Source of the DNA: a virus
Taxonomy: Duplodnaviria; Heunggongvirae; Uroviricota; Caudoviricetes
DNA length: 64,000 bases
Direction: 5' to 3' (one strand)
Virus record (IMG/VR): IMGVR_UViG_3300029705_000072
Both the position numbers and the translations under genes were made by a program. Below, one piece after another: positions 3,138-49,705 of the stretch. Numbering within the stretch: position 1 is the first letter of the stretch; each line of letters begins with the position of its first letter. A model generated the notes under the pieces. The model did not search any database, was not told the origin of the DNA, and worked only from the letters and a program-made list of their open reading frames with translations.

Positions 3138-3218
3138 GCTCCGATAGCTCAATTGGTTAGAGCGCACGGCTTATACCCGTGGAATCTGCTGGGGGTTCAA
3201 GTCCCTCTCGGAGCACCA
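3138..3218 (+). tRNA. tRNA-Ile (anticodon UAU), encoded CCA
   Basis: acceptor gctccga/tcggagc, D-arm gctc..gagc, anticodon loop cuUAUac, T-loop ttcaagt. Confidence 0.75.
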
Positions 3219-3479
3219 TCGGACCGCGATCGGGTCCCAGTGTAGCGTCCTTGTTAGTTTAAGGGTGAAACTAACTCTTGTCAGTAATGGTGAAACTGTC
3301 CCGTCGGGATATAACGGTAATTCCTTGCGTTTGTGGTGCGAGGCAATTATCCCAACCACATATGTCAACTTAGTTTAAGGCAAGAACACTGCGCTTATGA
3401 TGCAGAGGTATCAGTTGAAGTCTGATAGTTGACTCCCGAAAGGCCTACGGGTGGCTCTCAGGAATAGACTGAGGCATGC
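3219..3479 (+). ncRNA. structured non-coding segment between two tRNAs (unknown RNA)
   Basis: no credible ORF; internal repeats ttagtttaagg x2 and ggtgaaact x2; long-range complement gtcaact(3366)/agttgac(3431); several hairpins. Confidence 0.3.
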
Positions 3480-3554
3480 GCCGTCATGGCTCAATGGTAG
3501 AGCGGCTGCTTTGTAAGCAGCGGGTTGGGGGTTCGAATCCCTCTGGCGGCTCCA
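3480..3554 (+). tRNA. tRNA-Thr (UGU)
   Basis: acceptor gccgtca/tggcggc, anticodon loop ttTGTaa, T-arm ggggg-ttcgaat-ccctc, CCA encoded. Confidence 0.85.
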
Positions 3555-4460: not shown

Positions 4461-4772
4461 ATGAGTATCAGAATTGGGGATGAGGTTTGGTGCATGCCCC
4501 GTTCTGAGGCATTAGAAGTCTACCCTTACGGAGTTCTTCCTCCGGACGGCCTCGAATGGTATCAGAAGTGTGTTGTCACTACTATTGAAGGCGATACGAT
4601 CGGAGTAGATTTTGGAGTGGAAAACCTTGCTGGCCAAGAACTGCACGCACTGAATGGGGCGCTTAATTCCCATACGGGCTGGTATCTTTCAAGTGGATAC
4701 CTGGTTCATAGTTGCCCAACAGATATAGAACTTGATGAAAGCGACGAAGATATCAGCCTGATAATTGGTTGA
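4461..4772 (+). CDS. member 1 of a 5-member paralog family (GD-V ... LHSC ... W-L ... acidic E/D-I-x-L tail)
   Basis: shares motifs with ORFs at 4792, 12092, 12468 and 12847. Confidence 0.6.
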   Translation: MSIRIGDEVWCMPRSEALEVYPYGVLPPDGLEWYQKCVVTTIEGDTIGVDFGVENLAGQELHALNGALNSHTGWYLSSGYLVHSCPTDIELDESDEDISLIIG

Positions 4773-4791: not shown

Positions 4792-5094
4792 ATGGAAAAT
4801 ACTTTTAAGGTCGGCGATTTTGTTCGTATAAAAGAAGGTACTGGGGTATCGACTAGCGGAAGTTATTACAAAGTCCCTTATGAGTGGTGTTTATACGAAA
4901 CACCGAGAGTTATAGCTGTTAATAGCAATTCAGTCGGAGTGGAATTTAGTAATTGTGCAGGAGAGCTTCATTCGTGCGCCGGACAAGGAAGACCGGACCA
5001 CTGTTACTGGTTAGATCCGTCTTTGTTGGAGTTCTGCGATATTTTTGATGATGAGATTTCTGAATCCGACGAGGAAATCAGCATTTTATTCTGA
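4792..5094 (+). CDS. paralog family member 2
   Basis: FKVGDFVRIKEGT...ELHSC...HCYWLDPSLL...ESDEEISILF. Confidence 0.6.
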   Translation: MENTFKVGDFVRIKEGTGVSTSGSYYKVPYEWCLYETPRVIAVNSNSVGVEFSNCAGELHSCAGQGRPDHCYWLDPSLLEFCDIFDDEISESDEEISILF

Positions 5095-5111: not shown

Positions 5112-5528
5112 ATGATAAGAGAATCCGAATTCAGGGAAAATGTGACAGTGTTTTCCGAACTCAAAGAGTTCTGCGATGACAACGGGTGCGATCTTCTCGA
5201 CGAAGTGCGTGATCCAGATTATTTCGATGACGAGGTGGATAGCTGGTTGTACGACGCAATTCGGTACGGCGATTATGGATGGGAGAGTATAAGAGACAAT
5301 CTTGATGGATTACAAGCCCCAGACGACTGGTATGTACAAGAAGATGGGATTTTTGAATACTATTATCCAGATTTCCGGGACTATTTCGACGACGTTCTTG
5401 AGTGGGCGATAGATAACGAAATAGTAGAAGCTGATAGCAGTGACGACGATGACGATATCGACGAGTTCGATGACTCGGAAGATGTTCTCGAACTTATCGG
5501 TGACTTTATCTTCGCTGCGTGTGACTAA
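5112..5528 (+). CDS. highly acidic protein (poly-D/E), DNA-mimic candidate
   Basis: 138 aa, long DDDDDIDEFDDSED runs; RBS aaggagtgg. Confidence 0.5.
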   Translation: MIRESEFRENVTVFSELKEFCDDNGCDLLDEVRDPDYFDDEVDSWLYDAIRYGDYGWESIRDNLDGLQAPDDWYVQEDGIFEYYYPDFRDYFDDVLEWAIDNEIVEADSSDDDDDIDEFDDSEDVLELIGDFIFAACD

Positions 5529-5658: not shown

Positions 5659-6240
5659 ATGGGAATTAGAAATTTTATTTCGGACAACGCAGTCTGGAAG
5701 TTCGCAAAGCGCAATTCAGAACGTCTGCAAAAAGAGTTTGCCGTGATCATGAGTAACGACGACGAAGGATATAAGTTCTGTGTGAGCATGGACAAGGATA
5801 CCGTAATCCTTACAATCTTCAATAAGTTCGGAGATACGTCGTATATAACGGAATGTCAGGGCGAGGAAGATTGCCTGAGGAATGTAAAATGGCTGAGAGA
5901 ACTTTATTTCAAAGAGAAAAAGGTTATCGAGAAAACCGACAAGAAGCCAGATTCTTTTGATTCCCCTGGTGAATATCTGATGGAGTTTATCGACGACGAA
6001 AGGGAGGCAAGCCTTAGAATTGCGCTCGAAGACTTCATGTATGTTGTAGCCGGCTTCGATAGCAGGGAAGATGCTGAAATGGAGTACGGCGTTGGAATAA
6101 TGGAAGCCGTTCTCGATGATATTCTGCGGCTTCTTCTGGATGACTTCGGTATTTCGGTGTACAGACCGGCCATAGTACCGGAAAAGAAAACAGGGGAATT
6201 CGTCATGAGCGAATACCCGTACGATGACATAGGGAATTAA
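5659..6240 (+). CDS. hypothetical acidic protein
   Basis: 193-aa ORF, RBS ggaaggag. Confidence 0.5.
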   Translation: MGIRNFISDNAVWKFAKRNSERLQKEFAVIMSNDDEGYKFCVSMDKDTVILTIFNKFGDTSYITECQGEEDCLRNVKWLRELYFKEKKVIEKTDKKPDSFDSPGEYLMEFIDDEREASLRIALEDFMYVVAGFDSREDAEMEYGVGIMEAVLDDILRLLLDDFGISVYRPAIVPEKKTGEFVMSEYPYDDIGN

Positions 6241-6334: not shown

Positions 6335-6724
6335 ATGTCTAAGTTTGTAGTAGCAGGTGATGCAGTTGTTGTAACCTCTGCGGTGAAGTTCGACGATATC
6401 GTCGCACTGAAGAAGTACCGCCCCGAAGCCCTGTGTCTGAAGGACGAAGAGGGTCGTGTAATTTTCAAGGTGGGTATCGGCGCTACCGGTGGCGTAAGCG
6501 ACTTCGGCATTACCTTCACCAGCGAAAGCAACGATGATAAGGGGTTTGCACAGGTAACCATCATCGCACCCGACCATGATGGCGATGCAAAGGCCGCGGT
6601 TGTTGACAGCCATTTCGTTGCAATCGAAAAGCTGGAAAAACTGGAAAAGCATATCGCAGAAGAACTCGCTTCTGTAGAGGAAATGAAGAAGAAGATTTCC
6701 GAATCCGTGTCCGTTGTGGCATAG
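6335..6724 (+). CDS. hypothetical protein; first gene of the Ubl/JAB/E1 cluster (speculative E2-like: ...YRPEALCLKDEEG...)
   Basis: RBS AAAGGAGG; single Cys in an RPEALCLKD context reminiscent of the UBC HPN-x-CL-D motif (weak). Confidence 0.45.
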   Translation: MSKFVVAGDAVVVTSAVKFDDIVALKKYRPEALCLKDEEGRVIFKVGIGATGGVSDFGITFTSESNDDKGFAQVTIIAPDHDGDAKAAVVDSHFVAIEKLEKLEKHIAEELASVEEMKKKISESVSVVA

Positions 6725-6801
6725 AAAACATGTCTGCTGGGCGGTATGTGTGATTGCATGCCGCCCTTATTTATAACTTGAGTACGAAAAGGAGAATAAA
6801 A

Positions 6802-7044
6802 ATGGTACAGGTAAGAATCAGAAACAATTTCGCAGATATCACCGAGGTCTTCAGCGTCGATATGACCATTCGCCAGATTCTGGCCGAGAAGGAGCAGGCA
6901 ATCGATGGCTGCACCGTTTCTCTGGATGGCTACGCACTGAGTGCATCCGATATGGGCAAGACCCTCCTGCAGCACGGCTATGATGGAACCACCGGTAAGG
7001 ACAGATGTAATCTGACCATCGTTGCCAAGACCAATAATGCATAA
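6802..7044 (+). CDS. ubiquitin-like beta-grasp candidate (81 aa), no C-terminal GG
   Basis: Length and hydrophobic periodicity align with ubiquitin (MVQVRIRN.. / ..LDGYAL..TLLQHGY / NLTIVAK vs MQIFVKT / LEDGRTLSDYNI / LHLVLRL); RBS AAAAGGAGAA. Confidence 0.4.
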   Translation: MVQVRIRNNFADITEVFSVDMTIRQILAEKEQAIDGCTVSLDGYALSASDMGKTLLQHGYDGTTGKDRCNLTIVAKTNNA

Positions 7045-7071
7045 GTAACGGCCGGCACAAAGCCGGCTTTT

Positions 7072-7157
7072 GGGGAGTTGGCAGAGTGGCTTAATGCAGC
7101 GGTCCTGAAAACCGTCGATCGAAAGATCCGTGGGTTCGAATCCTACACTCCCCGCCA
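7072..7157 (+). tRNA. type II (long variable arm) tRNA, probably Ser (UGA)
   Basis: acceptor ggggagt/actcccc, variable arm gatcgaaagatc hairpin, anticodon loop ccTGAaa, T-arm gggttcgaatcc; the annotated ORF 7078 starts inside it. Confidence 0.7.
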
Positions 7158-7182
7158 TAAAGAAAAACAGGAGAGGTGTATT

Positions 7183-8604
7183 ATGTTTAAGGAGATTATT
7201 ACAAGAACTGCGCTTTGCAATATCGACGCAAATCAGTACTTCAGTAACATTCGAGGAGACTCATATATGGGCGACGTAACGTTCTTGTCCACACTCAGAG
7301 CTCTCCTGATGAACAGAGTTGATAAAGAAGAGGAACTGCAATTTGTGGTGTCCAGAAGAAGAGTAAGCAACACGCTTAACAACAGAGAACTTGTTAGAGA
7401 GGCTATTGGCGAGCCGGAATATCTCGACAACAACACTTTTTTCCTTGTTGACCTCTCGGGTCCAGTCGATAAAAACAAAGAGATCATTGGTAGACTTGAA
7501 AAATTAATGCCCGAAAGAGGGTTTGAGAATCTGCAGAAGGTCCGTGTGTTTTACAAAAAATCCTTTGAGGTAGCAGCATTTGCCAACGCTAAGAAAAAAA
7601 TCACCGTTGTGGTTGTTGGCAATATGGATATCAGAAAGTATCACTATCTGCAGTGCGCGACGTTCGCTCTCTTCCCTTGGTACTTCAATCCGAAAGATGG
7701 TTGTAGCGAACTCGAAAGACGAATGATCGAAGCAATGCGTCAGAAAGACGGTGATGAGTGCACTGCGTGTTATGAGGAGTTCGCAAGTGGTTTGGATTTC
7801 CGTACCGGAAAAATCAAATCCGCTTTTGAGGGGTTTGAAGAGTCGTTTTTCCTGAAACAGAAAGATAATCTTACTTCTCAGATTAGAAGTATTGACTCTG
7901 ATGTGGAAAGATATCAGAAGACTATCAGAGATATGCTTCAGAAGCGCAGAAATTACATGATGAATCTTGCCGGAATCGACCTCGGTCTCAAACAGGCTAA
8001 CAGCGGCGAACTTGTGGATTATTTCCTTCGGAACAAAAATCTCTCAGTTGTCGATGCGGTCGGGGACTATGTGTATTTCACCATAGACACATATATTACA
8101 GATTTTGTAATCGACGACGCAAAGCCCATAATCGAAAACAGTAGAGGGTATATACATGACGCTATCATGGCAACACCGGATCCCGATGGCACAAAGGCTT
8201 TGTTTAAAGAAATTTTTACAGAAGAGGATCCGCGAATTAGAATTAGAACGAAGGCAAAAGTAAGAATCGGCAAGAGCGGGTCTTTCGACAGCGATAGACC
8301 GATCGGACAGGGCTTGATAAATGACGAACTCAACGACCAAGTCCAGAATACTCATATCTGTAGATATAGCTGTTTTGGCAGTGAAAGAGAGGAGTTTTTT
8401 ACAGAAGCGCTCTCTAGACAGGATCATGTTATGATTGTCGAACAGTGTATCGCTGCGGCTAGAAATCTTAATTTCAACGACAGTATTGTTGGAAGAGATT
8501 TCTTCAACGATCTCGTAAGAACAAACGGAAGGGTGTTTGAGGTTATTGAAACCGGAGAGAAAATGAACCTGGCGGACGCTATTAAGTGGGTAAAGGAGAA
8601 TTAG
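7183..8604 (+). CDS. large hypothetical protein (473 aa), first ORF of an operon with JAB and E1
   Basis: start moved to MFKEII (RBS ACAGGAGAGG) because upstream in-frame codons are tRNA sequence; overlaps the next gene. Confidence 0.6.
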   Translation: MFKEIITRTALCNIDANQYFSNIRGDSYMGDVTFLSTLRALLMNRVDKEEELQFVVSRRRVSNTLNNRELVREAIGEPEYLDNNTFFLVDLSGPVDKNKEIIGRLEKLMPERGFENLQKVRVFYKKSFEVAAFANAKKKITVVVVGNMDIRKYHYLQCATFALFPWYFNPKDGCSELERRMIEAMRQKDGDECTACYEEFASGLDFRTGKIKSAFEGFEESFFLKQKDNLTSQIRSIDSDVERYQKTIRDMLQKRRNYMMNLAGIDLGLKQANSGELVDYFLRNKNLSVVDAVGDYVYFTIDTYITDFVIDDAKPIIENSRGYIHDAIMATPDPDGTKALFKEIFTEEDPRIRIRTKAKVRIGKSGSFDSDRPIGQGLINDELNDQVQNTHICRYSCFGSEREEFFTEALSRQDHVMIVEQCIAAARNLNFNDSIVGRDFFNDLVRTNGRVFEVIETGEKMNLADAIKWVKEN

Positions 8605-8606
8605 TT

Positions 8607-9398
8607 ATGTCCAGCATTATTAAAATTACCGATGACTACATCGAAGAATGCGTAAAAGAGTTCAAAGACGAACTTATTAAGTGCAGGATGGACGGGAAAT
8701 CCGAAATCAATTTCAAAAAAACGGTTTCTTCTGATAGCGAAAAGGCCGTCCTTTATATCGACTCTGCGGCGTATGCGAAGATGCAGGCTCTTGTATCTTC
8801 TTTTGACAAAGAGGTTGCATGGCATGGTCTTGCAGAGCGGATGGGGGACGAAAAACTCCACTGCTATCGAATTTATGACATCCTGTGTTACCCGCAGATT
8901 GCAGGAGCCGTAACGGTAGAGTCCGACGACGAAAGATACGGCGGCTGGTTTGATAAGCTCGAGAGCGATCAGGTAAACAATATGAGAATGCAGGGGCATT
9001 CACACGTTAATATGAGCGTTTATCCGTCAGTAACCGACGATAAGGACAGAGCGAACATGTTATCCATGATGCCCGGTGATGCATTCTATATCTTCATGAT
9101 TTGTAACAAGCGCGGTGAGATGAACACAAAAATTTACGACATGAAGAAGAATAAAATGTTCGGCAACCACGAAGTGTCCGTATATGTTTACACTGACGAT
9201 ATGGCTGAATTCATTAAGGAAGCCAAGGATTTTGTTAGATCTGTTGCGGTAGTGACCCCGATTCAGAAAGTAAATCAGGAGAAGGCGGTCGAAGAAAAGA
9301 AAAAAAACGAAAAAAGAGAAGAAAAAAGCGTAGGTAATCATAAGTACTCGTACATCGATGATACATGGGATGGTTACGAGGACTATGCATATATGTAA
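8607..9398 (+). CDS. JAB/MPN (JAMM) metalloprotease, deubiquitinase-like
   Basis: JAMM motif H-S-H-x7-S-x2-D present (HSHVNMSVYPSVTDD); RBS AAGGAGAA. Confidence 0.7.
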   Translation: MSSIIKITDDYIEECVKEFKDELIKCRMDGKSEINFKKTVSSDSEKAVLYIDSAAYAKMQALVSSFDKEVAWHGLAERMGDEKLHCYRIYDILCYPQIAGAVTVESDDERYGGWFDKLESDQVNNMRMQGHSHVNMSVYPSVTDDKDRANMLSMMPGDAFYIFMICNKRGEMNTKIYDMKKNKMFGNHEVSVYVYTDDMAEFIKEAKDFVRSVAVVTPIQKVNQEKAVEEKKKNEKREEKSVGNHKYSYIDDTWDGYEDYAYM

Positions 9399-9415
9399 AG
9401 AAAGGAGATGCTATC

Positions 9416-10087
9416 ATGGATTTGTCTAAGAGCTACGATTTCTTTAAGCCTGAAACGGACAAGAGTAGAATTCACATCATTGGATGTGGCTCCGTCGGTG
9501 CAACGGTTGCTGAAAACATTGCAAGATGCGGTGTGAAGAACTTCCATCTGTGGGATTTCGACAAGGTCGAGCCTCATAACATTGCAAACCAGCCGTTCAG
9601 GCACAAAGATATCGGCAAAGAAAAGGTAGAGGCGCTGAAAGAAATGATCTGTGAGATCAATCCGGACGCAGCTGATAGCGTTGTGCTTCATAACAAGGGT
9701 TGGGACGGCCAGAATCTCACCGGCTATGTCTTCCTGTGCGCAGATAGTATGAATGTTCGTCGAAATGTTGTAGAGCAGCACATGATGAGCACCAATATCA
9801 GAGCAATGTTCGACTTCAGAACCAGACTTACTGACGCTCAGCATTACGCAGCCGACTGGGCAGATCTCCGAATGAAAGAGAACTTTTATAAGACGATGGA
9901 TTTTTCGGATGAAGAAGCAGAAGCGGCAACTCCCACATCAGCGTGTGGTGTATCTCTTTCTGTATGCCCGACAATCAGAATTATTAGTGCATATGGCGTT
10001 GCAAACTTCATGAACTTCTGGAGGGGTGAGCCCATTAAGAAGATGATAGTTGCAGACGCATTCGCTTTTGACACGATGGCTTTCTAG
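9416..10087 (+). CDS. E1-like adenylyltransferase (ThiF/MoeB/HesA family), minimal 223 aa
   Basis: Rossmann motif IIGCGSVGA; D-x-D-x-V-E-x-H-N-I-x-N-Q (DFDKVEPHNIANQ); RBS AAAGGAGATG. Confidence 0.8.
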   Translation: MDLSKSYDFFKPETDKSRIHIIGCGSVGATVAENIARCGVKNFHLWDFDKVEPHNIANQPFRHKDIGKEKVEALKEMICEINPDAADSVVLHNKGWDGQNLTGYVFLCADSMNVRRNVVEQHMMSTNIRAMFDFRTRLTDAQHYAADWADLRMKENFYKTMDFSDEEAEAATPTSACGVSLSVCPTIRIISAYGVANFMNFWRGEPIKKMIVADAFAFDTMAF

Positions 10088-10428
10088 TCAAAAGCCATAT
10101 TTGCGATGCATTCTTTACGACGGTAAAGGCTGTTCGCTATGTAAGCAACAGTAACAAATTGTTCAACAGGGGAACGGGCGGGCAGACGACTGAAGGAGCT
10201 GCAGAAGGCGCCGGCATAAAAATCAAGACAATGAATCTAACGTCCAAGTCCAAACGCCATAAGGAAAACCTCGAAAACGAAAACCCGACGAGGTGAGAAC
10301 AAACCTGCGAAGAGCACCCAGCAAACCTACCTGTCCTCCCAAGACCAGGATGAGGACATCCTCCGTCCCAGCGGTCCTGATCGTTGACGCCAGAAAACAT
10401 ATTTAGATCGCAAAAGAAAGGCACAACT
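10088..10428 (+). ncRNA. structured non-coding region upstream of the RT (candidate RT-associated ncRNA/template)
   Basis: about 340 nt without ORF; hairpins (ctttacgacggtaaag); short inverted repeats at both ends (tttgcgat / atcgcaaa); shares the blocks agtaacaaattg, ctgaaggag and aacaaacctgc with region 11581-11975. Confidence 0.4.
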
Positions 10429-11580
10429 ATGATTTATGTAACAGTAAAGCAGTCACCGGTATTCAAGCAGATGTCAATAGAAGACCTGCTCTTTGGTGAC
10501 TTCGACAACAAGAAATTCGAATTCTTTTCGAACGGCGTATCTTCTACGAAGACATACGCCGTTTCTTATTTGTCCGAAAGAATGTCTAAAAATATTGGGG
10601 TGGATATCGATAACCTGATTGATAAGTTGAAGGCTTTTAATAATAACTACGCTGATCTTATGAGCATGGAACGAAGAGAGTTATATTCCACCTTCCATAT
10701 CCCCAAAAGAAGTGGCGGTCTTAGAAAGATCGATAATCCGTGCCCCGAACTGAAGAATGCACTCTATGTTCTTAAGGGTATTTTCGAAAACGATTTCCAT
10801 GCAATGTACCATACCAGTGCGTTTGCGTATGTGAAAGGTAGATCTACCGTAACAGCTGTTAAGAAACACCAGGCAAACGAGAGTAACTGGTTCGGCAAAT
10901 TCGACCTCACAAACTTCTTTGGAAGTACAACTATCGACTTTACGATGAAAATGCTTTCGATGATTTACCCTTTCAGTAGCGTAATCGAGAAGGCAGAGGG
11001 CGAGGCAGAACTCCGTAAGGCATTAGACCTTGCGTTTCTGGACGGAGGTCTTCCGCAGGGTACACCGCTTTCTCCCATGCTCACAAACATCATAATGATT
11101 CCAATCGACTTCGAACTGAACAAGGAGTTTAGAAACCTGAACGGTAAAAAGTTTGTGTACACAAGATACGCAGACGACTTCCATATTTCTTCAAGAACGG
11201 ACTTTAAGGTGTCTGAGGTAGAAGACGCAGTAATTAAGGTTCTTGAAAAGTACGGTGCACCTTTTTCACTTAACAGAAAGAAGACGAGATACGGCTCTTC
11301 TGCAGGTAGAAACTGGATTCTTGGCACGATGCTGAATTCAAACAATGAAATCACCGTTGGCCATAAGAAAAAGAAGCAGGTTCAGGCGATGATTCATAAC
11401 TACATCAGAGACAAGAAGTCCGGTATCGACTGGGATAAGAACGACGTTCAGGTTCTCAGTGGATATATCAGTTACATCCAGATGGTTGAAGGTGATGTGG
11501 CTAATAGAATAGTCGAGCACATGAACCAAAAGAACGATGTTGACCTGTTCAAAATGATCAAGGAAGACATTGCAAAATAG
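10429..11580 (+). CDS. reverse transcriptase (stand-alone prokaryotic RT; retron/DRT/UG-like)
   Basis: RT motifs: IPKRSGGLRKI (1-2), AFAYVKGRS, FGKFDLTNFFGS (3), LPQGTPLSPMLTN (4), YTRYADDF (5); about 100-aa N-terminal and about 140-aa C-terminal extensions, no endonuclease or maturase domain. Confidence 0.85.
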   Translation: MIYVTVKQSPVFKQMSIEDLLFGDFDNKKFEFFSNGVSSTKTYAVSYLSERMSKNIGVDIDNLIDKLKAFNNNYADLMSMERRELYSTFHIPKRSGGLRKIDNPCPELKNALYVLKGIFENDFHAMYHTSAFAYVKGRSTVTAVKKHQANESNWFGKFDLTNFFGSTTIDFTMKMLSMIYPFSSVIEKAEGEAELRKALDLAFLDGGLPQGTPLSPMLTNIIMIPIDFELNKEFRNLNGKKFVYTRYADDFHISSRTDFKVSEVEDAVIKVLEKYGAPFSLNRKKTRYGSSAGRNWILGTMLNSNNEITVGHKKKKQVQAMIHNYIRDKKSGIDWDKNDVQVLSGYISYIQMVEGDVANRIVEHMNQKNDVDLFKMIKEDIAK

Positions 11581-11975: not shown

Positions 11976-11978
11976 TAT

Positions 11979-12053
11979 TGGGGTATCGCCAAGCGGTAAG
12001 GCACAGGGTTTTGATCCCTGTATTCGATGGTTCGAATCCATCTACCTCAGCCA
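11979..12053 (+). tRNA. tRNA-Gln (UUG)
   Basis: close match to the Firmicute tRNA-Gln pattern tggggtatcgccaagcggtaaggc...; anticodon loop ttTTGat; T-arm gatggttcgaatccatc; CCA encoded. Confidence 0.85.
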
Positions 12054-12091
12054 AAATTTTATTTATCAAGCCGGAAGAGAGGAGGAACTGT

Positions 12092-12433
12092 ATGGAAGAA
12101 ATATTAAACACCTTTTGTGCTGGAGATATCGTAAGGGTAAACCCGGAAACACCGTCCATTCATTGCGGGGATGCATTTGCATACGTTCCATACGAGGATA
12201 TGCTCTCGGCTAATGCCACAGTCGTTAAGGTTAGTGAAGATAGAATCGAAGGAACGCTGATAGGTCTGGAATTTGATTTAAAGGATAAACGCACCGTTTT
12301 ACATTCATGTGTCGATAACTACGTGGGGCACGGAAGAGAAGGCTACTGTTGGTGGCTTCGCCCAGAATGCTGTATACCGGTTCTGGCGGACGAAATGACA
12401 GAAAGCGAAGAGGATATTACGATGTTGTTATAA
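12092..12433 (+). CDS. paralog family member 3 (acidic tail ESEEDITMLL)
   Basis: RBS GAGAGGAGG; start placed after the tRNA. Confidence 0.6.
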   Translation: MEEILNTFCAGDIVRVNPETPSIHCGDAFAYVPYEDMLSANATVVKVSEDRIEGTLIGLEFDLKDKRTVLHSCVDNYVGHGREGYCWWLRPECCIPVLADEMTESEEDITMLL

Positions 12434-12467
12434 CGCTTAAAAATGTTTTGTGGGTGGTGAGAAACAG

Positions 12468-12800
12468 GTGAAATTTATAATTGGCGATATTGTTTCCGTA
12501 AAAGAAGGAACGCGTGTCGGAAATGACAGAACTGTATTTAACGTACCGAGCAAGGATCTTATCGGCATTCCAGCAACCGTTCTTGGTTTTAAAAACGGAG
12601 GAACATTAGTCGGTGTGAAGTTTCACATAGACAAAGCAATGAGTAGTCTGCACAGCTGCGGCACTATCGAACCGCCTGGACGTTCTGGTCGCAATGGATA
12701 TTGTTGGTTCCTGGACGAAAGTTTGTTGCGGTTCTATGAGGAAACAACTGGCCTTGACCTTGATGAATCGACAGAAGACATTAAGATGCTTCTTGTGTGA
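12468..12800 (+). CDS. paralog family member 4 (probable GTG start)
   Basis: IIGDIVSVKEGT...LHSC...GYCWFLDESLL...STEDIKMLLV. Confidence 0.55.
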   Translation: MKFIIGDIVSVKEGTRVGNDRTVFNVPSKDLIGIPATVLGFKNGGTLVGVKFHIDKAMSSLHSCGTIEPPGRSGRNGYCWFLDESLLRFYEETTGLDLDESTEDIKMLLV

Positions 12801-13889: not shown

Positions 13890-14120
13890 ATGAAAAAGCG
13901 AATTTTAAATTGGCTGTTTGGCATAGAGAATGTAGAAGAATATATTCAGTTATTGCATGAAAATATTGAGTGCAGACAGAAGTATATTATCGAGATGAAT
14001 TCTCATCTTAAAACATTGCATGAAGAGAGAGAAAGTATTGATATTATTCGCAAGTTAATTAGGATATGCGAAAACCACGGAATTGATGCTGACGAAGAAA
14101 TAAAACATATCAAACTCTAA
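13890..14120 (+). CDS. hypothetical small protein
   Basis: ORF preceded by ttttatgaggttgatat motif. Confidence 0.4.
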   Translation: MKKRILNWLFGIENVEEYIQLLHENIECRQKYIIEMNSHLKTLHEERESIDIIRKLIRICENHGIDADEEIKHIKL

Positions 14121-14139
14121 AAGGATAGTTTTATGAGGC

Positions 14140-14394
14140 GTGAATATGAGGAAGCAATTTGTACTTAAATATCTTATAGGTGGCTATGGAGTATTTGGTA
14201 GAGTCATAGAAGATTATATGAGTGGAGAAACATACGAAGATGTTCTTAGTCAGTTTTGGAAAAGATACGAACATCTGTTAGATTGTGTTAAACCTACAAT
14301 ACTTGGATTGTACCTTCGTGAAAGCGGTGACACAAAGCAGATGTGGGAAGCAAGAAAAATCGAACTAACAGAATGTCAAATGTACGGAAGATAA
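14140..14394 (+). CDS. hypothetical small protein
   Basis: ORF preceded by ttttatgaggcgtgaat motif. Confidence 0.4.
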   Translation: MNMRKQFVLKYLIGGYGVFGRVIEDYMSGETYEDVLSQFWKRYEHLLDCVKPTILGLYLRESGDTKQMWEARKIELTECQMYGR

Positions 14395-16400: not shown

Positions 16401-16481
16401 GTCCGTGTGGTGGAATGGCAGACACGCAGGGTTTAGGTTCCTGTGCGAAGCGTGTGGGTTCAAGTCCCACCACGGACACCA
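16401..16481 (+). tRNA. tRNA-Leu (UAG), type II
   Basis: perfect 7-bp acceptor gtccgtg/cacggac; anticodon loop ttTAGgt; long variable arm; T-arm gtgggttcaagtcccac. Confidence 0.85.
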
Positions 16482-16484
16482 TAT

Positions 16485-16575
16485 GGCCGGGTAAGCATAG
16501 TTTGGTACTGCAGCGGTTTGCTAAACCGTTCACCGAGTGATCGGTGCGCAGGTTCGAGTCCTGTCCCGGCCGCCA
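16485..16575 (+). tRNA. tRNA-Ser (GCU), type II
   Basis: acceptor ggccggg/cccggcc; anticodon loop ttGCTaa; variable arm caccgagtgatcggtg. Confidence 0.85.
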
Positions 16576-16654
16576 AAAATCTTCGTCGTGGTTGCATTCG
16601 GCGGACGGTTTTTTATACTCCATTAGGCGATAGGTTTATCCCTATCGCCACCCA

Positions 16655-16738
16655 GGGGTTGTGATGGAAAGGCAGACATGACGGACTTAAAATCCGTTGG
16701 AGAAATCCGTGTGGGTTCAAGTCCCACCATCCCCACCA
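16655..16738 (+). tRNA. tRNA-Leu (UAA), type II (one acceptor mismatch)
   Basis: anticodon stem acgga/tccgt with loop ctTAAaa; D-arm matches the other Leu tRNA; T-arm gtgggttcaagtcccac. Confidence 0.75.
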
Positions 16739-16741
16739 TAT

Positions 16742-16834
16742 GGAAAGATAAGCCTAATGGTAAGGCAGCGGTCTCGAAAACCGCCAGTAGCCATCTAAGA
16801 TGGCGTATGAGTTCAAGTCTCATTCTTTCCGCCA
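16742..16834 (+). tRNA. tRNA-Ser (CGA), type II
   Basis: acceptor ggaaaga/tctttcc; anticodon loop ctCGAaa; long variable arm. Confidence 0.8.
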
Positions 16835-16837
16835 TAT

Positions 16838-16914
16838 GCGGCGTTGATGTTCAATGGTTAGCATATCAGCCTTCCAAGCTGAGTGAGCCGGTTCGAGTCC
16901 GGTACGCCGCTCCA
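16838..16914 (+). tRNA. tRNA-Gly (UCC)
   Basis: acceptor gcggcgt/acgccgc; anticodon loop ctTCCaa; T-arm ccggttcgagtccgg. Confidence 0.85.
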
Positions 16915-17035
16915 GCCCCTTGCCCGGGCACACGCTACTTTTCCTTGGTGGTAGATTGGTAAAACCACCTTGTCAGGATGTGGCAGAGACCATACCTTGT
17001 CGGCGGAACGAGGAAACATCCATCCGCTATTTTTT
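16915..17035 (+). other. non-coding segment with degenerate tRNA-like pieces and a T-run
   Basis: ggatgtggcagag resembles the Leu tRNA D-arm; hairpin ggtggtagattggtaaaaccacc; ends in ctattttttc; no intact T-arm. Confidence 0.25.
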
Positions 17036-17112
17036 CTGGGTGTAGCGCAGTTCGGTAGCGCGTCTGTTTTGGGTACAGAAGGCCGCTGGTTCAAATCCAG
17101 TCACTCAGACCA
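17036..17112 (+). tRNA. tRNA-Pro (UGG)
   Basis: acceptor ctgggtg/cactcag; anticodon stem tctgt/acaga with loop ttTGGgt; T-loop ttcaaat; CCA encoded. Confidence 0.85.
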
Positions 17113-20516: not shown

Positions 20517-21671
20517 TTGGAAATCTATTTAGATAACGCAGCGACTACAAAGATAGACGATCGAGTGGTCGATGCAATGATGCCGTATTTGAAAGAAGAG
20601 TACGGCAACCCTGGCTCGCTCCACTTAAAAGGAGCGAGAGCGAGGGATGCCATAGAGAGCGCGAGATCGTCGGTTGCCAGATTGTTGAATTGTGATGCCG
20701 GTGAGGTAATATTCACGTCTGGGGGTACGGAGTCGAACGCGACGGCGATATCTGCGTACATTGAGGAAAACGCAATGAGCGCGCACAAGAACATAGTTGT
20801 TACGGAAACCGAGCACAAGTCTGTTCTGGCGGCAGTTGAAAAGGCAAAGAGATTCGGATTTAGGGTTACATACCTAAAACCGACGAGTGATCCGAATGAC
20901 TTGATTGCCGGACTGAAAGAGGTAATCGTTCCGGATGCCGGTCTTGTTTCCGTAATGTATGTTAACAATGAAACAGGTGCCGTTAATCCTGTGGAGGAAA
21001 TCGGAAAGATATGCAAGGCAAACGGTCTTACGTATCATGTCGATTGTGTTCAGGCTGCGGGCTGCCATCCAATCGATGTGAAAAAGATTGGATGCGACTT
21101 CCTTTCGATCTCCGGACACAAGATACATGGTCCAAAGGGTGTTGGTGCGCTGTTCGCAAAACGTGAATTTCATCCACTAATTTCAGGCGGTTTTGACCAG
21201 GAATTTGGGCTGAGGGGTGGTACTGAGAACGTACCAGGTATCGTCGGTCTAGGGGCCGCTAGTAGCCTCGTAGACCTATCTGACATCAACTATGTGTCAT
21301 TGCTGAAGCAGACCTTCTATCATAATTTGACCAAGGAGCTGCAGGCACTAAAGGAAGATACAGGTGTGTCGGTTAACGGTCCGAGTGTTATAACGCCTGG
21401 AAGAATTTTAAATTTAAAAATTGATGGAGTTGACGCCCAGACACTCGTTTTAATGATGAGTGCCAAGGGCGTTTATATTTCTGCTGGTTCCGCATGCAAC
21501 AGTCATGATTCTGAGCCGAGTCATGTTCTGTTGTCAATGGGGTTGACGCCTGAGGAGGCAAGAAGTTCTGTTCGTGTTTCGTTCTCCAGAATGAATACGG
21601 CAAGTGACGTTGTGCGCGCCGCAACAGTAATGGCTGAGTGTATTCAGCTGCTTAGAAAATGTAATGAATAA
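20517..21671 (+). CDS. cysteine desulfurase (NifS/IscS-like class V aminotransferase)
   Basis: YLDNAATT, FTSGGTESN and SISGHKIHGPKGVGALF motifs (PLP-Lys); TTG start with RBS GAGGAGG. Confidence 0.85.
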   Translation: MEIYLDNAATTKIDDRVVDAMMPYLKEEYGNPGSLHLKGARARDAIESARSSVARLLNCDAGEVIFTSGGTESNATAISAYIEENAMSAHKNIVVTETEHKSVLAAVEKAKRFGFRVTYLKPTSDPNDLIAGLKEVIVPDAGLVSVMYVNNETGAVNPVEEIGKICKANGLTYHVDCVQAAGCHPIDVKKIGCDFLSISGHKIHGPKGVGALFAKREFHPLISGGFDQEFGLRGGTENVPGIVGLGAASSLVDLSDINYVSLLKQTFYHNLTKELQALKEDTGVSVNGPSVITPGRILNLKIDGVDAQTLVLMMSAKGVYISAGSACNSHDSEPSHVLLSMGLTPEEARSSVRVSFSRMNTASDVVRAATVMAECIQLLRKCNE

Positions 21672-21685
21672 GGAGTGACTTTATC

Positions 21686-22588
21686 ATGTCGATCAAAGAC
21701 TTTTTTATGAAAGAAGAAGAATGTAATTATGGTACCACGATCCATACCAGAAAGGTTTTAAACACAAAGAGGGTAGTGATTGTTGGCGTGGCACTTTTTG
21801 TTGTCCTGTCGCTGGTATTAAGTATGTTCGTTATTATTCCTGCTGGTCATACCGGTGTTGTTTCAACATTTGGTAAAGTAAGCGAAAACGTGATGCAGGA
21901 AGGTTTTAATCTGAAGGCGCCCTGGCATAAGGTCACGAAGATGGACAACCGCGTGATTAAGCTGGAAATTGAAACAGAGGCTTTTAGTTCAGACCTTCAG
22001 ACTGTAAGTGTGAACATTGCTGTTAATTACCGGTTAGACCCAACAAAGTCCTACTACATTATCAAGAACGTAGGCAAGAGTTACGAAGAAGTGCTGGTAG
22101 CTCCTGCTGTTCATGAAGTAATGAAGACCATCATTGCAGAATACACAGCAGAAAAGAGCATTGCAAACAGAAATGAGATTTCGAATTCATTGATTAAAGA
22201 CCTCAACAGCAAGCTTACAAAGAGCGGCATTTCAGTAGCGGACATCAACATCATCGATTTCGACTTCAGCGAAACATATATTTCTGCAATCGAAGCTAAG
22301 CAGGTTGCAGAACAGCAGAGACTGCAAGCCCAGATCGAGCAGGAAAGAAAAACCATGGAGCAGCAGGCTGAGGCAGAACGCAAAGTAATCGCCGCCAAGT
22401 CTGAGGCTGAGGCAATTAAGGTGAAGGCAGAAGCTGAAGCGTATGCCGGTGAAATCGAAGCCCAGGTAAATGCAAAGATCGCAGCATCTCTGACAAACGC
22501 CCTGGTCGAATATAAGAAGATTGAGCGCTGGGATGGCGAGCTGCCTACCGTACAGGGTACAAGCGGTACCATTGTGGATCTGAAGTAA
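21686..22588 (+). CDS. SPFH/band-7 (prohibitin-like) membrane protein
   Basis: N-terminal TM segment, SPFH core, Ala/Glu-rich coiled-coil tail. Confidence 0.7.
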   Translation: MSIKDFFMKEEECNYGTTIHTRKVLNTKRVVIVGVALFVVLSLVLSMFVIIPAGHTGVVSTFGKVSENVMQEGFNLKAPWHKVTKMDNRVIKLEIETEAFSSDLQTVSVNIAVNYRLDPTKSYYIIKNVGKSYEEVLVAPAVHEVMKTIIAEYTAEKSIANRNEISNSLIKDLNSKLTKSGISVADINIIDFDFSETYISAIEAKQVAEQQRLQAQIEQERKTMEQQAEAERKVIAAKSEAEAIKVKAEAEAYAGEIEAQVNAKIAASLTNALVEYKKIERWDGELPTVQGTSGTIVDLK

Positions 22589-48460: not shown

Positions 48461-49705
48461 ATGTCCGAAAAAAGAAGAGATAGCAAAGGACGTATTCTTT
48501 GGAACGGAGAGTTACAAAGAAAAGACGGTAAATACGAGTTTCGGTATACAGATTTAAAGGGGGAGCGCCATAGCGTATATAGTTGGAAACTGGTAGATAC
48601 GGATAAAGTACCGCAAGGAAAACGGTGTAAAGAGTCTCTCAGAGAGATTGAAAAAAGAATAAAACGTGACCTCGATGACGGATTAGATGCGAGGCTTATC
48701 GACAGAATTAAGGTAAACGACATTGTCATAGACTGGCTAGACATGGTGTGTCCTAGGCTGAAAATGAATACAAAGACGCAATACTGGAGTATGTACAAGA
48801 CATATATAAAAGACAGTATTGGACCTATGAAGGCATCTGAGATAAGGCCGTCTCATATAAGAAAGCTTTATACGAGCATACTTGTCGATCGGAAACGTAC
48901 TTTTAGAACGGTAGCTGTGTTAAACGTAATTATAACCGGTGCATTTTCTTCAGCGGTTAACGATGGCATAATCAGAAAGAACCCATCAATAGGAATCACA
49001 AAAGAACTGTCAAGACTTAACAAAAAGGGAAAGCCTGTTGTGGCGTTGAGCAAATCGCAACAGGAAAGACTTTTAAGATTTGTTCGTGGTCACCAAAAGT
49101 ACAGTAGGTGGGAGAACGTTATACTGGCTCTTCTTGGTACCGGGTGTAGAATCGGCGAGTTAGTCTCGTTGGTTGCCGGTGATTGTAATTTCGAAGAGTC
49201 TTACATCAACATACAAAGGGGTGTGTTCTACAAGAACGGTAAGAAGCAAATAGAGATTACAACAACAAAGTCTGAAAGCGGTATGCGGATAATACCTATG
49301 TTCGATGATGTTAGATCTGTCATACTAGAAGAACTTGGTGTAGAATCTCCGATGCAGATTTCAAATCTCGATGAACCAATATTTAAGAGCGTAACCGGCG
49401 ATATGCTACTGCCATCATCCGTAGAGGGAATGATGAGGCGACTGAAAGAGGCGTACAACAAATACGACGAACAGTTGGCTGCGGAAGAGAATAGGCGGCC
49501 AGATCCGATAGAAAGGCTCACGCCGCACGTATTCAGACACACATTTTGTACGAGGCTGTGTGAAAAAACATCCGATATAAAAATAGTACAAGAAATTATG
49601 GGGCATGCCGACATATCGGTTACTATGAATGTCTACAACAATATAAGTAAGGATAGGAAGATAGAAAGGTTCAAAGACTTCGGTGAATCCATCTCGGAAA
49701 TTTGA
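48461..49705 (+). CDS. int: tyrosine integrase (Int-Tn family)
   Basis: N-terminal arm-binding domain; catalytic box LTPHVFRHTFCTRL...IMGHADISVTMNVY. Confidence 0.9.
   Translation: MSEKRRDSKGRILWNGELQRKDGKYEFRYTDLKGERHSVYSWKLVDTDKVPQGKRCKESLREIEKRIKRDLDDGLDARLIDRIKVNDIVIDWLDMVCPRLKMNTKTQYWSMYKTYIKDSIGPMKASEIRPSHIRKLYTSILVDRKRTFRTVAVLNVIITGAFSSAVNDGIIRKNPSIGITKELSRLNKKGKPVVALSKSQQERLLRFVRGHQKYSRWENVILALLGTGCRIGELVSLVAGDCNFEESYINIQRGVFYKNGKKQIEITTTKSESGMRIIPMFDDVRSVILEELGVESPMQISNLDEPIFKSVTGDMLLPSSVEGMMRRLKEAYNKYDEQLAAEENRRPDPIERLTPHVFRHTFCTRLCEKTSDIKIVQEIMGHADISVTMNVYNNISKDRKIERFKDFGESISEI

Follow-up and report, generated by a model that had tools for sequence, protein, structure and literature searches.

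Why does a temperate phage carry genes for the conjugation of a ubiquitin-like protein (Ubl), and does this machinery act alone? The question is raised by a 64,000-nucleotide stretch of viral DNA (IMG/VR record IMGVR_UViG_3300029705_000072, Caudoviricetes; hereafter the window), in which a sequence-only reading had noticed a JAB peptidase, a minimal E1 and a candidate Ubl encoded together on a phage. Every feature named in that reading was found at or near the place given for it. Its carrier is a prophage of gut Clostridia. Directly downstream of the set we found a retron, consisting of a non-coding RNA (ncRNA) together with a reverse transcriptase (RT), which was absent from the earlier reading. 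On the plus strand between 6.3 and 11.6 kb, the order was a 129-amino acid (aa) protein (p129), a hairpin, an 80-aa open reading frame (ORF), a tRNA-Ser, a 473-aa protein (p473), a 263-aa ORF, a 223-aa ORF, a 340-nt spacer and a 383-aa ORF. On balance, and by a small measure, we favor the view that a prophage Ubl conjugation cassette works together with the retron, because of linkage statistics, a rearrangement in one locus and insertions of RNase H1 genes.

The 383-aa protein (10429..11580, +; YADD motif) was recognized as a retron-type RT by NCBIfam, PADLOC and Pfam profiles. It scored 196 bits with retron_St85_RT over model positions 9-287 of 289 (family cut-off 235), 177 bits with PADLOC RT_II-A (E 1e-52) and E 1e-19 with Pfam RVT_1; models of group II introns and defense-associated RTs scored far lower. 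These profile matches place the RT within the retron clade. The RT gene was split by an insert of about 1.2 kb in two relatives (L060:10369-11028 + 12244-12756; L139:12012-12926 + 14117-14338). An inverted repeat and covariation delimited a putative msr-msd ncRNA of about 315 nt (10100..10414, +), with arm a1 (TTTGCGAT) at 10100-10107 followed by an invariant G at 10108, msr hairpin 1 at 10113-10128, hairpin 2 at 10130-10151, a conserved TAACAAATTG at 10152-10161, and arm a2 (ATCGCAAA) at 10407-10414. The arms of relatives differed in sequence, stayed complementary and occupied the same places. When 38 loci were aligned by sequence, the 9-bp a1/a2 helix was 91% paired and all nine pairs carried compensatory changes, figures to be read with the caveat that these loci had been chosen by an exact inverted-repeat search. 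Double changes filled 62 cells versus 13 in shuffles, none of 500 shuffles reached the observed value, and controls with slid arms were 25-37% paired. The G after a1 was invariant in the 38 sequences, and msr hairpin 2 covaried at six of six pairs. The minimum free energy fold of the window RNA yielded a1/a2 and both hairpins, and the z-score of the fold energy alone was unremarkable (-1.3), so that support for the ncRNA comes from covariation, not from fold energy. As judged from the RT profiles and the pairing, the retron in itself is well supported.

Relatives of the locus were gathered as 33 p473 homologues, 64 IMG/VR loci, 80 loci from species-representative genomes and 27 metagenome loci. 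The order p129 - Ubl - p473 - JAB - (acidic protein) - E1 - ncRNA - RT was present in about 140 loci, mainly on phage contigs of 100-130 kb or on contigs of Clostridia metagenome-assembled genomes (MAGs). Some loci lay on bacterial contigs of 200-360 kb, indicating integrated prophages; together with an integrase gene at 48461-49705 of the window, these contigs bore out the temperate nature proposed earlier. The set of p129, Ubl, p473, JAB and E1 was found again in these roughly 140 loci at protein identities of 25-60%, showing that the grouping was no chance effect and that the operon members are co-conserved in related genomes, in line with the sequence-only reading. When all ORFs were clustered across 123 non-identical loci, p473 was present in 116, the RT in 110, JAB in 109 and E1 in 106, and the best flanking families reached 39-66. 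The RT was as tightly tied to the cassette as JAB and E1 were, while flanking genes turned over. In one locus (L104), the RT was placed between JAB and E1. An RNase H1 gene (Cauli_VI and RNase_H domains) was located within or beside the module in 17 loci, in three positions according to sublineage, and was missing from the window; examples are L010:6115-6765, with a hybrid-binding domain and RNase H, and L078, L093 and L096. RNase H1 matures the multicopy single-stranded DNA (msDNA) of known retrons.

The same data bear on a different explanation, namely that the retron, stand-alone or orphan, is an independent neighbor of the Ubl cassette in a conserved accessory region of this lineage and that each acts alone. 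Clustering of defense genes is common, the gap between E1 and the ncRNA holds 0.3-6 kb of unrelated genes in some loci (Bro-N/KilAC, DUF6273 and others), and the RT is lacking in a few members of the phage clade, in 34 related cassettes outside it (7 MAG and 27 metagenome loci, hereafter sister cassettes) and in relatives from cultured phages. However, mere neighbors would not be expected to show an RT as frequent as JAB and E1 amid flanking families that turn over, an RT within the cassette as in L104, or, in one sublineage, an RNase H1 gene separating the Ubl gene from p473, and no other candidate for a retron effector was conserved beside the RT. We regard independent action of the two halves as rather improbable.

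Is the cassette itself a conjugation system? The 223-aa protein (9416..10087, +) was matched by Pfam ThiF at E 2e-22, in agreement with its earlier identification as an E1. Invariant residues were the P-loop G23-G28, D47, D49, N55, Q59, K70, D110, R115, R135 and Cys177 (nt 9944-9946). Its Rossmann part and ATP/Mg residues assign it, by sequence, to the ThiF-MoeB adenylyltransferase superfamily. The best matches in defense libraries were the E1 part of CBASS E1-E2 models (PADLOC, 64.6 bits), with 6A-MBL cap2_3 also matched, and matches in the PDB included Uba1, Uba5, MoeB and Cap2. The protein fell below every NCBIfam ThiF/MoeB cut-off (best 80 bits versus 159, over residues 15-86 only), so the suspicion that it might be a plain MoeB/ThiF cofactor enzyme was not borne out: equivalog cut-offs were missed by far and only the Rossmann part was aligned.

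These matches also bear on a ThiS/MoaD/TtuB-type pathway for sulfur carriage or thiolation, in which the E1 and a desulfurase would make a thiocarboxylate for tRNAs or a cofactor. ThiF models were among the best single NCBIfam matches of the E1, many tRNA genes lay in the window, and a cysteine desulfurase-like gene (Aminotran_5, 20517-21671, +; E 1e-81) was encoded about 9 kb downstream of the RT. However, the ThiF/MoeB models scored far below their cut-offs and over the Rossmann part alone, the Ubl tail was N-A (GN, GG or AN in sister cassettes), in many cases followed by additional residues or by a fused protein, neither a rhodanese nor a sulfurtransferase was present as a partner, and the conserved partners were JAB and a domain with an E2-like Cys. 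The link to the desulfurase drawn in the sequence-only reading was also lost, since the gene was unlinked to the module in relatives. We consider thiolation very improbable. In a scan of viral contigs anchored on NifS, no module gene lay within 10 kb on either side, a result uninformative on whether the module is absent from related phages. The desulfurase-like gene is conserved in relatives and is followed in the window by an SPFH/Band 7 gene (20517-22588 for the two, +).

The 263-aa protein (8607..9398, +) is a divergent candidate JAB/JAMM metallopeptidase; its C-terminal end is a low-complexity linker followed by an acidic-aromatic tail. The JAMM motif seen earlier in this ORF was present as E69...H131-S-H133-x7-S141-x2-D144, and E69, H131, S132, H133, S141 and D144 were invariant in 19 sequences. 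Matches in profile libraries were weak (Pfam Prok-JAB E 0.099; PADLOC JAB E 0.016), and the only PDB profile match was a weak, in-register one to P. furiosus JAMM1 (E 0.26). The zinc-site motif assigns the protein by sequence to the JAB/JAMM (MPN+) superfamily. A tail-assembly JAB of the TAPI/K type was considered and rejected: there was no NlpC/P60 domain, no PHROG tail family and no adjoining tail gene, and the neighbors were E1, Ubl and RT, which separates the protein from the K-like type with which it might have been confused. The C-termini of JAB in the window (9300-9398) and in homologues had a Lys/Gly/Ser-rich linker and an acidic-aromatic tail (e.g., DDDDDPYGYY), a composition resembling docking tails of the SSB type.

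Structure prediction gave the 80-aa protein (6802..7044, +) a beta-grasp fold of the Ubl type, thereby supporting the earlier idea of a beta-grasp protein with a non-GG tail. Prediction was needed for this assignment: when the Ubl family was compared by hhalign with an alignment mixing Ub, ThiS and MoaD, the result was negative. A homologue search with the single sequence returned only itself. No match was found in library scans for p129, the 80-aa protein or p473 (Pfam, NCBIfam, PHROG and PADLOC for p473). Residues 78-80 were flexible (pLDDT <50), and the protein ended in N-A, so that no terminal Gly or Gly-Gly was present. The tail consensus was V-V-K-A-D-N-A, with KTNNA in the window copy (...K-T-N-N-A), and variants included KADNA followed by A, R, AA or GQ, KADSAA and, in one member, KADGG followed by IH. 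In one relative (L130:6381-7013), a single ORF ran through the Ubl to ...KADNA and continued in frame into p129, a natural fusion reminiscent, by analogy, of ubiquitin-fusion precursors. The extensions, the GG variant, the p129 fusion and the conserved tail together suggest proteolytic maturation at the N-A end. This tail differs from the canonical GG and is functionally analogous to it.

In nearly every locus, a homologue of p129 (6335..6724, +) directly preceded the Ubl gene, and the p129-Ubl pair was duplicated in tandem in L089/L090. p129 counts as a member of the module solely within the retron-bearing phage clade. No fold family was detected for it: it had no match in Pfam or the PDB, and its family had no invariant Cys, Ser or His. 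The suggestion that this protein might be an E2 was dropped, as its lone Cys (RPEALCLKD) is T, S or V in relatives; E2-like features were found instead in the C-terminal domain of p473. Between p129 and the Ubl gene, a consensus scan alone picked out a terminator-like 12-bp hairpin with a T-rich run (6739..6766, +).

The earlier description of the 473-aa protein (7183..8604, +) as a member of no obvious family held for the library scans and gave way for its C-terminal domain, which may be linked to the E2/UBC fold. The protein comprised an N-domain (aa 1-215), a coiled-coil helix (218-270) and a C-domain (about aa 276-473; nt 8008-8604) in which His391 and Cys397 (nt 8371-8373) were invariant. 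An AlphaFold2 model (pLDDT 87.9) had an alpha/beta N-domain, a 50-residue helix and the C-domain. Foldseek of this model against the PDB gave no significant match, and a Pol-beta/CD-NTase-like identity was rejected because URT1, TUT7 and GLD-2 were matched at a probability of at most 0.2 and no acidic triad was conserved. Large proteins of the sister cassettes shared the plan of N-domain, coiled coil and C-domain, with the motif (A/H)PH(V/I)x3-4G..C(L)G(N). In profile comparisons, the sister C-domain matched five canonical E2s with probabilities of 84% and 80% (E 7e-6 and 1.5e-5, up to 112 columns), and the phage p473 family matched the sister C-domain with 86% and 85% (E 5e-6 and 6e-6, 54 and 80 columns). 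Direct hhalign of the phage C-domain (mixed alignment) against E2s was negative, so the link was seen only via the sister family. The conserved Cys of the sisters was aligned with the catalytic Cys of E2s, and their PH with the PN of HPN. On this transitive profile link we call the C-domain E2-like (E2L), with moderate confidence, and Cys397 the probable catalytic residue; the predicted arrangement as a whole is a coiled coil with an RWD/UBC-like domain. At 50% identity, the p473 family comprised 2,435 cluster representatives (E<=1e-3), and a probable function is thereby given to a very large unannotated family.

The sister cassettes were brought to light in Saccharibacteria, Bacteroidota and environmental bacteria. 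Distant JAB-E1 pairs (L143-L149) came from bins labeled Saccharibacteria, Flavobacteriaceae, Bacteroidaceae and Thorarchaeota, and a four-gene operon of a 355-563-aa protein, JAB, E1 and Ubl was present in L145-L149, which had enough flank, and in most of the 27 metagenome loci. Tails of the sister Ubls (KIKGN, KIRGG, KIRGNA, SIKGGC) ended in GN, GG or AN, in some cases plus a single further residue. A scan of viral contigs with the sister C-domain profile gave no confirmed match. Beside the sister operon of a Saccharibacteria bin (L145:7603-10897), a protein encoded at L145:5561-7033 (-) had, as read by eye, an AAA+ Walker A motif and an N-terminus resembling a coiled coil, which hints at Ubl-directed unfolding or degradation.

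The folds, the motifs and the independent sister operons lend good support to a biochemical core predicted from sequence, comprising maturation by JAB, adenylation by E1, transfer to an E2-like Cys, and ligation. When the folds, the gene linkage and the RNA covariation that we observed are put together, the following course may be proposed. JAB would trim the Ubl precursor just past ...N-A, taking off short extensions, or p129 where the two are fused. The minimal E1 would adenylate the freed C-terminus and may hold it as a thioester on Cys177, after which the Ubl would be handed to Cys397 in the E2-like C-domain of p473. The coiled coil and N-domain of p473 would probably provide dimerization or the choice of target. 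The Ubl would be ligated onto lysines of target proteins, and JAB could undo this ligation. The RT would copy part of the adjoining ncRNA into msDNA and, by analogy with other retrons, RT-msDNA may serve as a sensor or brake that ties conjugation to infection by a second phage or to some cue from host or phage. Such a system could act in phage-host or phage-phage conflict through superinfection exclusion or counter-defense. A more specific form of this proposal is that the locus is a new retron type whose effector is a full Ubl cascade (Ubl, minimal E1, E2-like ligase, JAB and p129) gated or scaffolded by msDNA; this is put forward tentatively and with some doubt.

Several observations weigh against this reading of a conjugation cassette that works together with a retron. 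All RT-bearing loci came from one syntenic phage lineage, so their linkage could be inherited gene order. The RT was missing from L005, L061, L102 and L131, and from the sister cassettes and cultured-phage relatives. JAB was matched weakly by library profiles, the Ubl C-terminus was not Gly, and the canonical Arg of NxxRQ was Asn58 in 27 of 27 E1 members. The target, the trigger and any toxicity of the effector are beyond what sequence can tell. Finally, genes for related E1s occurred amid replication genes of lytic phages (FpV4 and Xanthomonas jumbo phages), which fits a role in the phage's own cycle over one in defense.

This last point leads to a further explanation, that the same biochemistry serves the phage's own cycle by tagging host or phage proteins for takeover, assembly or counter-defense against systems of the Bil or CBASS type. 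Flavobacterium phages FpV4, Fpv1 and Fpv3 encoded a Ubl fusion, JAB and a related E1 amid replication genes; in Xanthomonas and Erwinia jumbo phages, a related E1 was accompanied by a small protein ending in GG and by an 892-aa protein whose motif was similar. In FpV4 (L184, gp53-gp50) and Xanthomonas phage PhiXhv-12 (L185, 2778-6654), these regions were annotated only as 'thiamine biosynthesis protein ThiF', and Ubl-like proteins (SGG and KASGG ends) and JAB or E2-motif proteins adjoined the E1. The module region of the window also looked early, with many tRNAs and small genes, and the fast evolution of p473 and the Ubl would fit an arms race. However, the element is temperate and was found integrated, the E2-like homology in the cultured phages was statistically not significant, and to our knowledge the retrons characterized to date act as host or prophage defense sensors. 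A role in the phage's own cycle is in our judgment somewhat unlikely. For gp52 of FpV4 and the 892-aa protein of the Xanthomonas phage, the E2-like call itself was rejected; the latter aligned in register, though without significance. FpV4 and the Xanthomonas jumbo phages are possible tractable cultured models.

The surroundings of the module were those of a large temperate phage encoding DnaB helicase, the DNA polymerase III alpha subunit, an anaerobic ribonucleotide reductase, a Tn916-type integrase, Aminotran_5 and tail genes. A nucleotide search against GenBank phages returned no close phage, with a tRNA as the sole match. The overlaps between p473, JAB and E1 genes described earlier disappeared when ATG starts supported by homologues were used: the genes then abut, and overlap arises only from upstream GTG/ATG alternatives. 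A tRNA-Ser(UGA) gene (tga; 7072..7157, +; ARAGORN and Rfam) did lie in the spacer between Ubl and E2L, as noted before. It was not a fixed member of the cluster, since among relatives this spacer was empty or held either an RNase H1 gene (in L010 and others) or a tRNA-Leu (L005); the tRNA is probably a passenger. Eleven tRNA genes were present in the window (3138-3554, 11979-12053 and 16401-17112 among the sites), including two tRNA-Ile(TAT) and a six-tRNA block (Leu, Ser, Leu, Ser, Gly, Pro). Small paralogous proteins were encoded near the module and the tRNA genes, at 4461-4772, 4792-5094, 12090-12433 (within ORF 11978-12433) and 12450-12800 (+), with the core '...ELHSC...G(Y)CWW/YWL...' and an acidic C-terminal tail '...E(S)DEDI..L(L/I)'. 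An acidic 138-aa protein (5112-5528, +) and a 193-aa protein (5659-6240, +) accompanied the module in 49 and 66 of the 123 loci, respectively, as non-obligate companions; the acidic protein shifted position, lying in the JAB-E1 gap or after the RT. Near the window start, a RAGATH-16 RNA (191-262, +) was detected with Rfam above the gathering score (71 bits, E 1e-11).

How, then, does the proposed retron-linked cassette compare with known systems? Research on retrons, like that on bacterial Ubl conjugation (Bil, type II CBASS, Bub), is recent and active. In full-text literature searches, whose coverage was incomplete, no paper tied retrons to Ubl, E1 or JAB machinery, and none dealt with this phage cassette. 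With Bil (BilABCD), the module shares four predicted roles, those of a small beta-grasp Ubl, a catalytic-Cys E2, a Ubl-maturing JAB and an E1. Bil Ubls with extensions or fusions that require the deubiquitinase have been described (PMC10557695). In contrast to Bil, the E1 here has 223 aa, no inserted CYS domain, no zinc site and Asn for the canonical Arg; the E2-like domain forms the C-terminal part of a 473-aa protein, behind an N-domain and a coiled coil, and has PH instead of HPN; the Ubl ends in N-A, not Gly; and the module has the additional p129, resides on a phage and has a retron linked to it. Bil-specific models gave no match, and direct sequence similarity to Bil was negligible.

The E1 part of CBASS (cyclic-oligonucleotide-based antiphage signaling system) E1-E2 proteins gave the best defense-library matches of the E1, which here also has a JAB partner, as in the Cap2/Cap3 pair of type II CBASS. 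Cap2 accepts a C-terminus that is not Gly (Ala). The module differs from CBASS in having no CD-NTase and no cyclic-nucleotide effector, in having the E1 and the E2-like domain on separate proteins, and in having a dedicated Ubl as substrate, not the C-terminus of an enzyme. As in Bub, a fused Ubl would need a cognate peptidase, and the E1 and E2 are minimal and diverged (PMC11601596). Bub uses serine (oxyester) chemistry with a peptidase-E1 fusion and a Ser-His protease, whereas here Cys177 of the E1 and Cys397 of E2L are invariant and the predicted JAMM peptidase is separate.

Among retrons, the closest RT models were those of type II-A / St85-Sen2, and the likeness extends to the retron-clade RT and to an upstream ncRNA with a1/a2, the G and msr hairpins. 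The classical retrons Ec67 and Ec73 sit on temperate phages, as does this one. The module differs from known retrons in an RT score under the St85 cut-off (196 versus 235 bits), in a long ncRNA (~315 nt) and in the partners of the RT: no known effector (NDT, ATPase, HNH, Toprim, TIR, protease or others) was present, and only Ubl, E2L, JAB, E1 and p129 were conserved. If the coupling is true, this would be the first link of reverse transcription with ubiquitin-like conjugation, in phage-phage or phage-host conflict of gut Clostridia. Protein tagging would then be a new class of retron output, performed by a compact phage-encoded Ubl system of about 5 kb in which the E1 has 223 aa and the Ubl does not end in Gly.

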